In this document: positions 27,001-33,000 of the stretch, one piece after another
Layout of the letters: each line of letters starts with the position of its first letter
Numbering within the stretch: position 1 is the first letter of the stretch
Assembly: GCA_963730185.1 (NCBI GenBank)
Contig: CAVSQW010000014.1
Span: forward strand, 96,001-160,000
Direction of reading: 5' to 3'
DNA: 64,000 bases
DNA from: an uncultured Gemmatimonadales bacterium
Lineage (GTDB): Bacteria; Gemmatimonadota; Gemmatimonadetes; Gemmatimonadales; GWC2-71-9
Position numbers: made by a program

Positions 27001-30000
27001 TCTCCCGGGGGCTGGCCGGTACCCGGGCCCGGACCCTGATCGTGAACCTGCCGGGCAGCCCGGGAGGCGTTCGCGACGGCCTCGCGGTCCTGGCTCCGCT
27101 GGTGGAGCACGCGGTCGAGCTCCTCCGGGGCGACCACCCGGGGCACTGACCGATGGCCGACATCGTCCTCACCCTCGCCGACCTGGAGACGGCGGTTCCC
27201 CTCAACGCGGCCCTCGAGGCCGCCGGCTATGCCACCGCGCTGGTCTCCGCGGTCGACGACGCCCGGGCCACGGTGCGGCGGGAGCAGCCCGATCTGGTCA
27301 TCCTGAGCGGGGCCGTCTACGAGCCGCCTACTCTCGACCTGGTCGCCTACGCGCGGGACCTGGAGGCCTACACCCTCGCCCTGATCGAGCCGACCGACTC
27401 CGAGCGGGGCGAGCGGATCGCCCGGCTCGGCGCGACCGAGATTCTCACCAAGCCGGTTTCGGTGGAGGACACGGTTGCCACGGCGCGCCGGTTGGTGGAG
27501 AGCCGACGGCTCCAGCAGCGGATCGGGATCATCGGGCAGAGCGGGGCCATCCACGAGGTATTGGTCAAGATCGAGCAGATGGCGCCGGTCTCGACTACGG
27601 TGCTGATCCAGGGAGAGTCGGGCACCGGCAAGGAGTTGGTCGCCAAGGGGCTGCACGACCTCTCCCCCCGGCGGGGCAAGCCGTTCGTCCCGGTCAGCTG
27701 CGCCGCACTCACGGAGACATTGCTCGAGTCGGAGCTCTTCGGACACGAGAAGGGGGCTTTCACGGGCGCGGCCGAGCGACGGCTGGGACGGTTCGAGCTG
27801 GCGGACAAGGGCACCATCTTTCTCGACGAGATCGGCGAGATCCCGGCCAGCACCCAGGTCAAGCTGCTCCGGGTGCTCGAAGCCCGGAACTTCTTCCGGG
27901 TGGGGGGCACCCAATCGATCAAGGTCGACGTCCGAGTCATCGCGGCGACCAACAAGTCGCTCAAGGAGTCGGTGGCGCTGGGGGAGTTTCGCGAGGACCT
28001 CTACTACCGGCTGAGCGTCCTGAACGTCTATCTGCCTCCGCTGCGCGAGCGCCGGGAGGACATCCCGCTCCTGGTCAAGCGGTTCATCAGGGAGTTTTCC
28101 AAGGCTCACGATCGGCAGTTCCGGGGCATCGCCACCGAGGCGATGCATCGTCTGATCGAGGCCCCCTGGCCGGGCAACGTTCGCCAGCTCCGGAATCTGA
28201 TCGAGTCGATGGTGGTGCTGGCTCCGGGCACGGAGATCCGGGCGTCCGATATCCCCGGCGATGTGTTGGAGGGGGCCCACACGTTGCTGCCCGTCCTCGC
28301 CAGTCAGGCGCCTCGGGCGCCGGGTACCCAGGAGCTGGAGTTCATCCTCCGCAACCTCATGGATTTGCGCTTGCAGGTCGAAGAGTTGCGCCGACGGCTC
28401 GATGAGCGGCCTTCCAAGGTCCAAGTCATCGAGATTCCGGAGGCGTCGTTCACACCTTTGCACGAGGTCGTGCCAGACGTTGCACCGCCGGAGGTGCTCT
28501 ATCGGTCTGGCATGACTATGGCTGACGTTGAAAAGGCGACAATCGAGGCCGCGCTGAAGGAGTCAAAGGGGAACCGACGTCAGGCGGCTGCAAAGCTCGG
28601 AATCGGCGAACGAACGCTCTATCGGAAGATCAAGGAATTCGCCCTCGGGTGAAAGCGGAGGTGTAAAAGTTTGAGGCACTTGGCCGCCTTGACTTTGCAA
28701 ATCGCCGCGGCGAACGTTTCGAAGTTCGGTCACGACTCTTATCTGAGGCCGGGGACGTGAACTTCGTCATCGACGGCGAGGCGTGCGTAGCATGCCTGGC
28801 ATGCGCCCGGGTCTGTCCGACGAACGCCATTGCGGTGGCGCCGGACGCGACCTGGGTCCGGGTCCTCGACGAGGCCTGCATTCGATGCGGGCTTTGCGTC
28901 CCGGAGTGCCCGCACGACGCCATTCAGGTGGCCGGCGAGGTGGGGAACGCGGTGGCGATCGCGGCCGAGGGCCTGGGGGCGTTGATCTTGGGCACGGAGT
29001 GCGCGGCGCACTTCTATCCGGCCACTCCGGAGCAGGTGGTGAACGCCTGCTATGCGTCGGGGTTCCGGGTGGTTTCGCGGGGGGTGATTGGGGACGAGCT
29101 GGTGGCGGCGGAGTATCTCCGGCTCTGGCGGACGGAGACCTGGGGCACCATGCTTCGTTCCAGCGACCCGGTGGTGGTGGAGACGATCCGGAGGGAGTAT
29201 CCGGAGCTGATCCCGTACCTGGCCCCGGTGGCGACCCCGGCAGTTGCGGAAGCGCGCTATCTGCGCTCCATTCATCAGGGCGACCTCAAGATCGTGTATG
29301 CCGGGGTGACCCCACCGGTTGGCAGCGAAGACATCAACGCGAGCATCACCTTCGCGGAGCTGGAGGAGCTCTTCCGGGTCCGGGGGGTGAACCTGCATGC
29401 CCAGCCACTGGTGTTCGCGCGGGTGCCGCAGGAGCGCCGGCGCCACTTGAGCGTGGCGGGCGGGCTGCCGATCGAGCTGCTGGAGGAGGCCAAGCACTCG
29501 AGCCGCCGGTTCCAGAAGGTGCGGGGGCTCAAGGCGCTGAAAGCGATCTCCCGGGCGGTAACGGTCGACCGGATCGACCTGGGCTTCGTGGACGTGATGT
29601 CGTTCGAGGGCGCGCTGGACCATCCGCTCTCGGGTCCGCGGGAGGAGCTCTACTGGCGGCGGGCGGTGGTGCAGAGCACCGAGCCGCCCCGGAGCCGGGT
29701 CCCGGTGGTGGAGCCCGGGGTGGTGGCCAGCATCGGGGCGGTGTTCGACATCCGGCCCCGGCGGGCGGTGGCCGACCCGGAGTCGGTGGAGCAGGTGTTG
29801 AGCGCCATCGGGCTGGGCCCGAACGGGCGCCCCTGGGATTGCCGGGCCTGCGGGTACGCCAGCTGTCGGGACTTTGCCGAGGCGGCGGCCTTGGGGCGGG
29901 CCTCGCTCCGGCAGTGCGGGCCCTACCAGGAGCGGCAGGCCGACGAGGCCCAGCGGGCCGCGGCGACCGACCTCTTGACCGGGCTGGCCACCTTTCGGGT

Positions 30001-33000
30001 GCTCCGGGAGCGGCTCCGGCACGAGGTGGAGCGGAGCAAGCGGAGCGGAGATCGGTTCACGGTCCTGTTCATGGACCTGGACCGGCTCAAGGAGATCAAC
30101 GACCAGTACGGGCACGAGTCGGGCAACGACGTGCTTCGGGCGGTCGCGCAGGAGGTGCGGGCGGCGGTGCGGGCCTCGGATCTGGCGGCGCGGTACGGCG
30201 GCGACGAGTTCGTGGTGATCCTGACCCGGACCGATCAGGTGGGTGCCGAGCGGGTGGCGGAGGCGGTGCGTCACGGGGTGGAGGCGGTGGGCCGCCGGTT
30301 GGGCTATCCCGAGGGAATCGTGACGGTGAGCGTGGGGATCGCCGAGTACGATCCCGACCGCCCGTCGAGCGGAGACTTGCTGGTGAACGCGGATCGCGCT
30401 CTGTACAAGGCCAAGGCCTCGGGGCGTAACACGGTGGTCTAGCGGGTAAGCGAGGGGAGTTGTCACAGTGACGGGACCCAATCCGAGGCCACACGAGCCG
30501 GCCGCCCGGCCAAGCGGGCCGGCGGCCGCCCAGGAGACGATGCCGGATCCGTGGGGCGTGCGGCGGGCGGAGAACCTGCTGACCACCCTCGAGGGGATCC
30601 TGTCGGCCCGGGTGGTGACCACTCCCCTGGGGGAGGTCAGCGAGATCCACGTGCTGGCCCAGTCGGGGCTCTCGGCCAAGCAGCTGGTGCGGAACATCGA
30701 GTCGGCCCTGCTGGCGCATCTGGGTCTCAAGGTGGACCATCGGAAGATCAGCATCGCCCAGACGGCCGAGGTCAAGCCGCTGGAGACGCTGGAGCACGTG
30801 GCGGTGCGCGAGCGGGCGATGCAACGGGCGGTCCTGTTCGAGGACCTGGCGGTACACCAGTCCGGCCGGGCGCAGCGGATCACGATCGCGGTGACCCTGT
30901 CGTTCGGTGGGCGGCAGGAGACGGTGGAGCAGGACGTCGCCGACACCCCGCGGGGCCGGGTGGAAGGCGCCGCCCGGGCCACGGTAGGCGCGCTGGAGCG
31001 GTTCGTGGAGCGGAACGCGCTGGCGCTGGAGAGCGTCCAGATCGTCGACGCGATCGACCGGAGTGTGGTGTTCGTGGCGGTGCAGGGGATCGGGGGCCGG
31101 GACGCGGTGCTGTTGACGGGCACGGCGGAGATCCGGCAGAACCCCGAGCGGGCGGCGGTATTTGCGGTGCTGGACGCGACCAATCGCTGGGCGGATGCGC
31201 GGCGACCCGCCTGAGCGGTAGGGACTTGGGAGTCGGGAGTAGTGACTCGGGAGTGAGTGGTGAGTAGGCAGTAGGGGCAGCTTCACGAACGGAACAGAAA
31301 GGAACGGTAGGGAGGGAACCCCGGTCTTCGCGGCAGGAGAGCGGAGCAGAGCGGACAACTGAGCGGAGCGTTTGATGGGCCATAGCGGGGCCCGTCCTTC
31401 TTGGTCGACTAACCAGAAGGACCCGAAGGGGGGTGACGCTCATGATCAGCTGGCTCGCAGCTATCGCCGTCGGCGCTGTGCAGTTCGTGGCTGGACTGTT
31501 CTTTGCTGAGACGATGTCTTGGTGATGATCTAGGGTTCCCTCCCTACCAAGTCTTCAATGGATCGAACTCGATCGCGCGTCAATGCTTTCGTTGTCGGCG
31601 TTGGGAGCCTCGCTCTTGCGTCGATGTTGCTGGCGTGGCGAGTTCGACCGCCCTTCCCGGGCTTTTGGGCGCTGTCAGTCTTCGTTGCAGTTGGCGCCTT
31701 GTTGGAACTGACTAGCACCCAGCAAAAGGCAACAGGCGCCACAGGCAACATCTCCTTCGTCATCGACCTTTCGGCACCTTTGATCTTTGGCGGCTTCTGG
31801 GCTGCACTGATTACAGCGCTACGCGTTCTCGTCAGCAACCTCCTTGGCCGTAAGGCGCCGATTCGGGTCGCGTTCAATCTTGCCCAGACTACGCTTGCGG
31901 TCGTCGTCGCGTCGACCGTCTACCATATACTGGTGCCGCAGATCCCGCCGCGGCTACTGGTCGACTATGCGAGCCTTCCGTTTGATGAGGTATTGCGGCA
32001 ACTAGGGGCGTTCCTAGTCGCGGCGGCTCTATATTTTTCTGTCAACGCCATTGCAGTTACCACGGTCGTGAGCCTGAGCGCCGGCCGAACCGTCAGAGGC
32101 TCGATTGGCCTTAAGGCCTTCAGCTTCCTCGGCTACGACTTGCTGGCGAGTCTCCTCGCCATGGTGGTCGCGTGGGTCTTTGTCAGTTTCGACGAGGAGA
32201 ACGGACTCGCACGCCTTGCCCTGCTTGCCGTATTCGTGCCGGTAATCTTGGCGCGCCACATGTACGGAAAGCTCAATACCCTCCAGATCCTCTACGACGA
32301 GCTTGATCACGCCCACGAAGGCCTAGAATTGGCGTTACGTGAGCAACTCGAGATGATGGTTAAATCGATCGAGGCTCGCGATCCTTACACGTCAGGGCAT
32401 TCGCGACGTGTGGCGGCCCTGTCGAAGGCTATCGCAACGGATCTGGGTTTCACGGGTGAGGTGCTTGGTGAGGTTGAGAATGCGGCCCTCCTCCATGACG
32501 TTGGTAAGATCCACGCTGAATTCGCTCCACTCCTACAGAAGGAAGGGCGTTTGACGCAGGAGGAGTGGGAAATCATGAAGACCCACGCAGCCAAGAGTGC
32601 CGAGCTTGTCGGACTCTTTAGCCGCTTTCGTGGGACGGTTCAATCGGCCGTGCGATCACATCACGAGAGATGGGACGGTAAGGGCTACCCTGACGGGCTT
32701 GATGGCGACGAGATCCCACTCGGCGCTCGGATCATCATGATTTCGGACACCATTGACGCGATGACAACCGACAGGCCCTATCGGAAGGCCCTACCCTTCG
32801 AACGAGTCGTAAGTGAGTTGCAGAAGTACCGCGGGGCCCAGTTCGATCCGCGCTTGGTGGACGTGACAATCAACTCTGTCACAGTTCGCCGGCTGGTTTC
32901 AGACAAGGAGTTTCTGGCCGAGCAGACCCGGTCAGATCGCCCGATCACGAAGGTGCGGACTCGACCGGCCCTGCGATCGCAATCCAACTTCCTTGACGCA

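Follow-up and report, generated by a model that had tools for sequence, protein, structure and literature searches.

A putative iron-sulfur-sensing GGDEF cyclase with a hydrogenase-derived input domain in Gemmatimonadales and its possible cGAMP output

The window analysed here, a 64,000-nucleotide stretch of a contig from an uncultured Gemmatimonadales bacterium, encodes a 561-aa protein best explained as a cytoplasmic one-component signalling enzyme. Its sensor part descends, as fold and domain order support, from group C/D-type sensory [FeFe] hydrogenases, and both specificity positions of its GGDEF domain are shifted from those of diguanylate cyclases towards those of the cGAMP-making Hypr enzymes. 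The explanation of the whole that we prefer, tentatively, is an Fe-S redox/O2-responsive Hypr-like cyclase with a hydrogenase-derived input and an output of cGAMP and c-di-GMP.

The gene and its neighbourhood

27153..28652, + strand: upstream neighbour, a sigma-54 activator with intact GAFTGA and a receiver-like N-terminus with Ser in place of the usual Asp
28689..28717, + strand: conserved sigma-70-type promoter-like site (-35 TTGACT, 17 nt, weak -10) just 5' of the 561-aa gene
28757..30442, + strand: 561-aa Fe-S sensor/GGDEF dinucleotide cyclase gene (g03694), GTG start
30468..31214, + strand: conserved protein of 248 aa, assigned to no known family (70/70 loci with sufficient flank)
31442..31525, + strand: unannotated 27-codon ORF, hydrophobic and Trp-ending, with a strong ribosome-binding site (a like ORF in 61/62 intervals, this one included)
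31558..33039, + strand: MASE9 membrane sensor with HD-GYP phosphodiesterase (g03696), c-di-GMP-type RxxR (45/45 loci with sufficient flank)
33050..36364, - strand: convergent BTAD-AAA-TPR regulator (39/39 loci with sufficient flank)

The reading frame has codon-position GC values of 0.73/0.49/0.91, and 78 of the 80 related loci are titled Gemmatimonadota. The pattern TTGAC-N18/19-xAxx(T/G)T, derived from the same upstream sequences on which it was counted, occurs in 76/77 upstream regions of the sensor-GGDEF gene and in 0.4% of shuffles; a strict-consensus scan gave no match. The sigma-54 activator lies upstream in 60/61 loci with sufficient flank, and among 59 of these proteins the receiver Asp position is Thr in 31 and Ser in 7, with 21 unparsed. 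The 248-aa protein has no match in Pfam or NCBIfam, and its Atlas neighbours are unnamed Gemmatimonadota clusters. The HD-GYP gene mentioned in the earlier note is indeed found downstream, with the 27-codon ORF additionally placed between it and the 248-aa gene, and its motif is RPYR in 57/57 parsed orthologues.

The hydrogenase-derived sensor

28766..28927, + strand: 2x[4Fe-4S] ferredoxin domain (C10 C13 C16 C20 and C41 C44 C47 C51), Pfam Fer4
29003..29755, + strand: H-domain fold of [FeFe] hydrogenases, devoid of H-cluster ligands, from Pfam, alignment and model
29837..29920, + strand: Cx2Cx4Cx16C cluster motif (C362 C365 C370 C387), PF04060
29918..29968, + strand: signalling helix of constant length between the final cluster ligand and the GGDEF domain, from linker counts and model

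The domain order described earlier is borne out by Pfam (Fer4 in two stretches, Fe_hyd_lg_C at 83-282, 4.9e-13, FeS PF04060 at 361-388, 3.3e-9, and GGDEF at 402-558, 1.5e-42) and by the structure model, in which the H-domain (pLDDT 91) matches 8zqd_A with Z 31.1 and rmsd 3.0 over 327 aligned residues and the N-terminal part matches ferredoxin domains with Z about 10.

Alignment to intact group C-type proteins, anchored on solved hydrogenases, places D137, T185, F283 and A286 at the H-cluster ligand positions, with C98 outside them. Two sets of relatives were compared: a clade of 78 sequences (77 of the 80 loci plus the query, three loci cut by contig ends being dropped) and a wider, unfiltered, HMM-picked and genus-spread set including 31 family loci. 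Within the clade the ligand positions hold no cysteine in 72 sequences, one in five and four in one, and Asp replaces the first ligand in 77/78. The claim that no conserved H-domain cysteine set exists thus stands for the clade and not for the family, where 21/31 loci keep all four. The Lys following the second ligand, which has a role at the di-iron site, is present in 34/36 intact-type relatives and in 0/31 family loci; the query has no Lys-x-Glu.

Maturases HydE/F/G were not found in the protein's own genome (82% complete), nor HydG and HydF in any of 125 family genomes, in 115 of which the sensor was matched; HydG exceeded the cut-off in three genomes, all of another family. Active [FeFe] hydrogenases are known in genomes without HydEFG (PMC11216029), so that maturase absence alone proves little and is a weak criterion. 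The host genome carries four genes for heme-copper oxidase subunit I. A true H2-sensing hydrogenase whose cofactor is unusual or matured in another way would agree with the group C/D fold and domain order and with such HydEFG-less enzymes, but none of the four cysteines that hold the H-cluster is present, which makes this reading extremely improbable. The protein almost certainly performs no H2 chemistry, as had been proposed, and is best read as something other than an H2 sensor.

A complete H-cluster signature (four cysteines and the Lys) is kept in distant hydrogenase-GGDEF fusions, so the GGDEF domain in place of PAS, though confirmed in the 561-aa protein, is not unique to its clade. Together with the four-cysteine loci, the zero-cysteine clade and forms without ferredoxin clusters, these fusions make up what by alignment is a decay series, of which the 561-aa protein is one stage. 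The alignment and the tree show an intact sensory [FeFe]-hydrogenase-GGDEF fusion as ancestor of the input module, a first loss of the di-iron site with the four cysteines retained, and a second loss, in the clade of the 561-aa protein, of the H-cluster cubane.

All twelve accessory cysteines are invariant in 78/78 clade sequences, partly by construction because the filter demanded their motifs. Beyond the clade the claim of invariance fails: 15/31 family loci lack one ferredoxin cysteine (C44 in 13, C13 in two), and five further homologues, L146-L150, have lost most or all twelve while retaining the H-domain and GGDEF. Judging from its ligands, the 561-aa protein has probably kept both ferredoxin-type clusters as well as the C-terminal [4Fe-4S] cluster, whose region is the most conserved part of the clade alignment (24/47 columns at least 95% conserved). 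The linker counts 17 residues in 78/78 clade sequences and in 29/29 measurable wider loci (11/40 were not measurable), 21 residues in 6/8 intact-signature fusions, and it is helical at 384-401 in the model. The redox state of the clusters, or their integrity as affected by O2 or NO, may be passed on through this fixed helix, which begins at the last ligand and would set the register of the GGDEF dimer.

That the redox or O2 state of the clusters is the signal seems to us somewhat probable. Redox sensing as such stays only plausible because the cluster-less homologues keep the H-domain and GGDEF, and because the corresponding cluster at the C-terminus of TamHydS resists reduction, was not reduced under H2 and appears not to act as a redox switch (PMC13104023); both observations count against the cluster-signal reading. 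They would suit a sensor in which invariant polar residues of the emptied H-cluster pocket bind a metal, a small metabolite or a partner protein, for example the 248-aa neighbour, the clusters being mainly structural, whichever dinucleotide is made. The polar H-domain residues E81, D113, E114, R134, D137, R229, H230, D279 and H289 are invariant in the clade, and E81, D113, E114, R134, R229, D279 and H289 are common to the four-cysteine, zero-cysteine and cluster-less clades; conservation of at least 95% is reached by 72/200 columns of the H-domain, and the Asp at the first ligand position agrees with such a pocket. Set against it are the retention of all twelve ligands in the clade with the C-terminal cluster region most conserved, the start of the linker at a cluster ligand and the lack of any identified candidate ligand, and we consider a pocket sensor unlikely.

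The GGDEF domain and its predicted product

29960..30430, + strand: GGDEF domain with D440, K445, N448, GGDEF 481-485 and RxxD I-site (R472, D475) intact
29993-29995 and 30125-30127, + strand: Hypr specificity positions F413 and N457 (compare PMC6456294 sections 12-13)

The protein possesses what a diguanylate cyclase requires in GG(D/E)EF, metal Asp and active-site Lys and Asn, and D440, K445, N448, GGDEF and RxxD are each invariant in 78/78 clade sequences. The canonical guanine-reading Asp and cross-dimer Arg are replaced by N457 and F413. At position 457, the Asp site of the xxGD motif, Asn is found in 78/78 clade sequences and in 37 of 40 wider loci, the other three (L129, L132, L136) having Ser, and Asp in none of the 118. 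Position 413 is Tyr or Phe in 77/78 and 38/40, respectively; the Arg is present in 94% of predicted cyclases, and Hypr enzymes require GGDEF, not GGEEF (PMC6456294). The motif here is always GGDEF, never GGEEF, in 78/78 clade sequences and in 39/40 wider loci. The non-Arg cross-dimer residue (Tyr in GacA) likewise agrees with Hypr enzymes, which are, however, defined by Ser/Thr at the guanine-reading position (PMC6456294, PMC13725321), position 348 of GacA; the literature consulted held no test of Asn there.

Loss of the guanine-reading Asp, the 78/78 invariance of RxxD and the inactivation of 4/5 canonical enzymes by Asp-to-Ser (PMC6456294 section 12) could point to a catalytically weak or dead domain acting as a c-di-GMP receptor or as a scaffold for neighbouring proteins. 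As the four inactivated mutants were GGEEF enzymes and the family here is GGDEF, with metal-binding and catalytic residues and the dimer helix all invariant, this is quite improbable, and the protein is predicted with good confidence to be an active cyclase, presumably with c-di-GMP feedback inhibition at the RxxD site. Base promiscuity may follow from Asn457, which could donate or accept a Watson-Crick-edge hydrogen bond, and from stacking of Phe413 on either purine, so that 3',3'-cGAMP would be made along with c-di-GMP. The output looks tuned for cGAMP, a rare messenger, besides, or in place of, c-di-GMP, and we lean slightly towards cGAMP being among the main products; the proposal that the enzyme sets c-di-GMP levels has become doubtful, as both specificity positions point towards Hypr enzymes and the cGAMP-type (RxxQ) phosphodiesterase of its own genome is a gene distinct from the neighbouring HD-GYP.

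RxxQ, a mark of cGAMP phosphodiesterases (bioRxiv 10.1101/600031), was seen in HD-GYP proteins of 5/5 genomes read, including this one, and the pattern, derived from the same family on which it was counted, in 106/125 family genomes and 2/175 others; the co-occurrence, confined to one family, amounts to about one evolutionary event, a point against the cGAMP reading. Three genomes (G000, G083, G224) have the RxxQ enzyme, and no Ser-type GGDEF or SMODS cyclase was found in them. GEMM-I riboswitches occur in 85/100 family genomes. The 561-aa cyclase would then be the core cGAMP source for the RxxQ phosphodiesterase and A20 riboswitches of the family. Somewhat more tentative still is the idea that this Gemmatimonadales family runs a core cGAMP system of an Asn-type Hypr writer under a decayed [FeFe]-hydrogenase Fe-S redox/O2 sensor, a conserved REC-HD-GYP(RxxQ) eraser and A20 GEMM-I riboswitch readers, some in tandem with G20, ahead of surface-protein genes.

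A less likely reading joins the same redox sensor to an ordinary diguanylate cyclase in which Asn457 reads guanine, forming a local c-di-GMP module with the neighbouring RxxR HD-GYP. The synteny and constant RPYR motif of that neighbour favour it, as do Asp in 6/7 readable intact-signature relatives, the best PDB matches of the GGDEF domain, which are ordinary cyclases with GacA 12th of 33, and the 59 parsed aptamers, 30 of which have G20 and 29 A at this position. It does not explain why Asp never returns and Ser does so three times, why two specificity positions are altered together, or why the RxxQ phosphodiesterase is family-wide with no other constant candidate source. The Ser/Thr definition, the RxxR neighbour, the GacA rank and the G20 half of the aptamers count against cGAMP too, together with the frequent bispecificity of A20 aptamers (PMC6140456), Ser-type GGDEFs separate from the sensor-GGDEF in 4/8 family genomes, which might be the cGAMP source there, the failure to find a GEMM-I riboswitch in the own genome (82% complete; none in two congeners either) and His at 413 co-occurring with Asp in intact-signature fusions. 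Among 63 other intact-motif GGDEF domains of the eight genomes, 57 have Asp at the guanine-reading position, and the four with Tyr at the 413 equivalent all have Ser or Asn; a second, separate GGDEF clade has one Asn member among four Ser members. A Ser-bearing orthologue of the 561-aa protein has GacA (6d9m) as its best PDB match, with both specificity positions aligned.

If Asn does substitute for the Hypr serine, it would be a new specificity signature, cGAMP signalling would be wider than present signature searches reveal, and a previously unrecognised core cGAMP system would be a trait of a common soil and water lineage that is mostly uncultured.

Comparison with known systems

The putative sensory HydS proteins of group C (M2f, TmHydS) and group D (M2e, TamHydS) have the same order of two N-terminal [4Fe-4S] motifs, H-domain fold and C-terminal Cx2Cx4Cx16C (PMC8163306), with 24-34% identity to the 561-aa protein over residues about 8-396. 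They differ in their PAS output, whereas the 561-aa protein has a GGDEF output on a 17-residue helix, neither H-cluster cysteines nor lysine, no maturases found and an aerobic-type host. HydDB, in the part available, links group C only to kinase, chemotaxis and phosphatase (PMC5037454). Signal transmission by these hydrogenases is described as unresolved (PMC13104023, PMC8163306), one reason being the lack of an enzymatic read-out. Hydrogenase-GGDEF fusions couple the same sensor to an easily assayed cyclase in four natural states (intact, four-cysteine, zero-cysteine and cluster-less), which, if the series is correct, would be a natural dissection of that transmission. PF02906/TIGR04105 match proteins of the present type, and metagenome surveys may wrongly count them among the hydrogenases, though they are unable to hold an H-cluster.

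The uncharacterised intact-signature fusions P0045, P0049 (named from Actinomycetota), P0052, P0056, P0069, P0071 and P0075 share the architecture, including GGDEF, and the RST(C/D)P motif, and are the nearest outgroup in the tree; they differ from the 561-aa protein in possessing the four cysteines and lysine, in a linker of 21 residues and in that most of them carry the guanine-reading Asp. By their signature they are candidate H2-sensing diguanylate cyclases and would allow a direct test of H2 sensing.

Hypr cGAMP synthases (GacA of Geobacter, GacB of Myxococcus, Bd0367) share non-Asp at 348 and an aromatic at 304 (GacA numbering), GGDEF with Asp and RxxD, and at the genome level the RxxQ HD-GYP and A20 riboswitches that accompany the 561-aa family. 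The 561-aa protein differs in Asn rather than Ser/Thr and in Fe-S input rather than receiver domains, and its putative GGDEF cyclase domain has no special sequence affinity to GacA.

Nar1 retains a cluster site in its H-domain and functions in Fe-S assembly. Eukaryotic Nar1/IOP1 reportedly has a hydrogenase fold without hydrogenase activity (PMC12621388). The sister clade with four cysteines resembles it, and so do stand-alone domains of the sister family, whereas the 561-aa protein is a bacterial signalling fusion with no H-domain cluster site.

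The sensor-cyclase gene and its neighbourhood

The reading frame proposed in the earlier note is real as judged by codon-position GC, and Pfam returned the domain order claimed there, namely two Fer4 matches followed by Fe_hyd_lg_C (83-282), PF04060 (361-388) and GGDEF (402-558). The genes concerned are:

27153-28652, plus strand: sigma-54 activator with a receiver-like domain carrying Ser/Thr at the phospho-accepting Asp site
28757-30442, plus strand: window gene, which begins with GTG, encodes 561 aa and has the codon-position GC of coding DNA
30468-31214, plus strand: protein of 248 aa that matches nothing in Pfam or NCBIfam and nothing named in Atlas, invariably beside the cyclase gene
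31442-31525, plus strand: unannotated 27-codon ORF, hydrophobic, Trp-ending, directly 5' of the MASE9-HD-GYP gene

The window protein, the sole PF02906 match of its own genome, is real, conserved and uncharacterised, and is built from known parts; a literature search made mostly without subscription papers returned no description of its family, of a hydrogenase-GGDEF fusion or of cGAMP in Gemmatimonadota. In the species-genome scan, 78 of the best 80 of 416 confirmed loci are titled Gemmatimonadota (identity 56-87%). Within the phylum sample, the sensor part matches 115 of 125 genomes of the protein's own Gemmatimonadales family, 8 of 23 and 1 of 1 genomes in two further families of the same class and 0 of 48 in one further family, with weak matches in 22 of 70 genomes of a sister family. 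One or both of two genomes flagged as unpublished (G087 and G206) are included in the tallies of the sensor part, HydG/HydF, GEMM-I and RxxQ, and no claim is made on them alone.

The gene order is kept in the loci with enough flank: the sigma-54 activator in 60/61, the 248-aa gene in 70/70, the MASE9-HD-GYP gene in 45/45 and a convergent BTAD-AAA-TPR gene in 39/39. The 248-aa protein is a possible partner of the cyclase, and the 27-codon Trp-ending ORF, conserved in 61 of 62 intervals, could encode a leader peptide or a peptide that signals to the membrane sensor. The receiver-like domain of the activator has Ser/Thr in the 38 of 59 sequences that could be parsed and Asp in none of them, and judging by these residues its N-terminus is a pseudo-receiver. 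Control of the window gene by this activator found no support, though no search aimed at a sigma-54 pattern was made, and the conserved upstream element is sigma-70-like: the gene has its own site of this kind in 76 of 77 cases by a pattern drawn post hoc, and a strict consensus scan was negative.

The hydrogenase-like domain and its cluster ligands

The model of residues 1-398 (pLDDT 91) superposes on the [FeFe] hydrogenase 8zqd_A with a Z score of 31.1 and an rmsd of 3.0 Å over 327 residues, the next non-hydrogenase having a Z score of 10.3, although this fold was favoured by the intact hydrogenases present in the underlying alignment; a model built from 50 orthologues alone has identical H-domain secondary structure. 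Searched against PDB as a single sequence, the H-domain by itself gave no hydrogenase match, a profile and the fold being required, and only GGDEF structures were among the matches listed in a fold search with the full-length model. In a set of 1.8 billion representatives, the nearest proteins from outside the family are of group C type, with 24-34% identity.

Alignment to these group C-type proteins, and via a profile to the solved HydA, places D137, T185, F283 and A286 at the four ligand positions, the H-cluster ligands being taken by their CpI numbering. Also gone is the lysine following the second ligand, which has a role at the di-iron site and is kept in 34 of 36 intact-type relatives. 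C98 is ruled out as a leftover ligand since its helix (91-100) lies at a distance from the motifs that were mapped. As aligned, the absent cysteines argue strongly against an H-cluster, and the window protein is almost certainly not an H2 sensor. In its own genome (82% complete), HydG and HydE had no match and HydF none above the cut-off, and none of the 125 family genomes searched yielded HydG or HydF, the controls being positive; absent maturases by themselves are weak evidence against a hydrogenase, according to PMC11216029. The window's own genome carries four genes for heme-copper oxidase subunit I and, on contig C7, one for a [NiFe] hydrogenase large subunit (G000:C7:63774-65321; L170).

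The earlier note had described the twelve cysteines of the accessory clusters as invariant and the hydrogenase-like domain as keeping no conserved cysteine set. Both statements stand for the window clade, zero ligand cysteines being found in 72 of 78 closer sequences, but neither extends to the wider family: among 31 family loci, hand-picked to span genera, one ferredoxin cysteine is missing in 15, and four ligand cysteines without the lysine are kept in 21, none in 8, two in 1 and one in 1. The loss of one ferredoxin cysteine would give a [3Fe-4S] site. Five homologues (L146-L150) have also lost the accessory clusters and retain the H-domain and GGDEF.

The window clade represents one stage in a series of decay. 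The intact signature (four cysteines and the lysine) accompanies GGDEF in 10 of 37 scanned representatives, one of them named from Actinomycetota. P0045, P0052, P0056, P0069, P0071 and P0075 each join a group C-type hydrogenase, its H-cluster signature complete, to GGDEF and are candidate H2-sensing diguanylate cyclases. A further group C-type representative, P0122, is distant and PAS-sized and has also lost all four ligands; Asp occupies the first of these positions, and the loss appears to be independent. The sister family contributes 18 loci (L025:1456-3456, L026, L154-L169) with stand-alone H-domains that have four cluster cysteines, no ferredoxin, no GGDEF and a long low-complexity tail, and are bacterial Nar1-like proteins; L025 and L026 have a divergent Crp-like gene. 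A quick tree was built from 85 of 114 rows, the other 29 being left out because they were partial or redundant or to save time; with SH-aLRT support only and the careful search unfinished, it places the intact-signature proteins outside and the four-cysteine forms basal in the Gemmatimonadota group, with two zero-cysteine clades (support 96 and 99) nested and a two-cysteine form adjoining them.

Cyclase specificity and possible cGAMP signalling

The metal, catalytic and I-site residues of the GGDEF domain are invariant. The guanine-reading Asp site (position 457) is Asn in 78/78 closer sequences and, in 40 wider loci, Asn in 37, Ser in 3 and Asp in 0, while the cross-dimer Arg site (position 413) is Tyr/Phe in 77/78 and 38/40; GGEEF is never seen in either set, and some genomes may be represented in both. 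The matching positions in the cGAMP synthase GacA are Ser348 and Tyr304 (PMC6456294). GacA is the best PDB match of the Ser orthologue L136, where alignment confirms both positions, and only the 12th of 33 for the window GGDEF domain. The literature search, with subscription papers mostly outside reach, returned no test of Asn at the guanine-reading position.

For background, 63 further GGDEF domains with intact motifs were compared in 8 family genomes, counting those with a returned locus, which 5 weak matches lacked. Of these domains 57 have Asp, 5 Ser and 1 Asn, and Ser or Asn is found in each of the 4 that carry Tyr at 413. One clade consists of:

L239, L242, L244, L271, L304: GGDEF proteins anchored in the membrane, four having the Hypr Ser and one Asn

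These proteins are additional candidates for cGAMP synthases in Gemmatimonadales. In another quick tree the Asn member falls among the four Ser members in one clade (support 99), separate from the clade of the window family, so Ser and Asn have interchanged twice. This second tree gives no support for a shared origin of the window GGDEF with the Ser-type clade that these genomes also contain.

An RxxQ HD-GYP motif is reported as a mark of cGAMP phosphodiesterases in bioRxiv 10.1101/600031. All 5 genomes read, the window's own among them, encode such a protein:

G000:C12, about 111854-113788: RxxQ receiver and HD-GYP protein (L317), predicted cGAMP phosphodiesterase

The RxxQ DNA pattern, derived from family sequences and counted in related genomes that are not independent, occurs in 106/125 family, 2/70 sister-family and 0/105 other genomes (reversed control 1/301). 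Ser-type GGDEFs are found in only 4 of 8 genomes and are therefore not the constant cGAMP source; the RxxQ enzyme occurs in G000, G083 and G224, where neither a Ser-type GGDEF nor a SMODS cyclase was found. Counting against cGAMP, the syntenic HD-GYP is RxxR in 57/57, a motif that rules out this neighbour as the cGAMP eraser. On balance we lean slightly towards cGAMP being among the products of the window protein, and its description as an active, Fe-S-controlled, base-promiscuous cyclase is tentative, with a little less than even chances.

GEMM-I riboswitches were detected in 85 of 100 family genomes, with none found in the window's own genome or two congeners. In 59 parsed aptamers (cmscan check; 55 loci, being the 15 best and 40 hand-chosen lower-ranked, 3 spurious matches removed), the position equivalent to G20 is A in 29 and G in 30. 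An A at the G20 position marks cGAMP-binding or bispecific aptamers (PMC6140456). Tandem GEMM-I aptamers, A20-type then G20-type, lie at:

L172:1305-1592
L176:724-995
L180:1500-1770
L182:1343-1588

Tandem aptamers precede Ig-like surface protein genes in three of the four checked and form a possible two-messenger logic gate. The genes downstream of the riboswitches code for exported proteins of Ig-like, subtilase, PilX-like and comparable kinds (Pfam match in 9 of 10 scanned).

Signal path and comparison with known systems

Exactly 17 residues separate C387, the final C-terminal cluster ligand, from the GGDEF-opening Asp in 78/78 closer and 29/29 measurable wider sequences, and the corresponding linker of intact-signature fusions is 21 residues long. 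The 17-residue stretch is helical in the model and has the geometry expected of a dimer helix that would set cyclase activity. The input may be the redox or O2 state of the clusters, or else a ligand in the emptied H-domain pocket: 72 of 200 H-domain columns are nearly invariant, cluster-less homologues survive, and the equivalent C-terminal cluster of TamHydS, a group D sensory hydrogenase, is unreduced under H2 (PMC13104023).

HydDB as described in PMC5037454 has no cyclase-linked [FeFe] subgroup. The window protein resembles the transmitter of sensory [FeFe] hydrogenases, the architecture of which is given in PMC8163306, wired to a GGDEF enzyme. Unlike group C and D hydrogenases it is without ligands, lysine and maturases; from canonical diguanylate cyclases it differs in two changed specificity residues, and from strictly defined Hypr enzymes in having Asn, not Ser/Thr.
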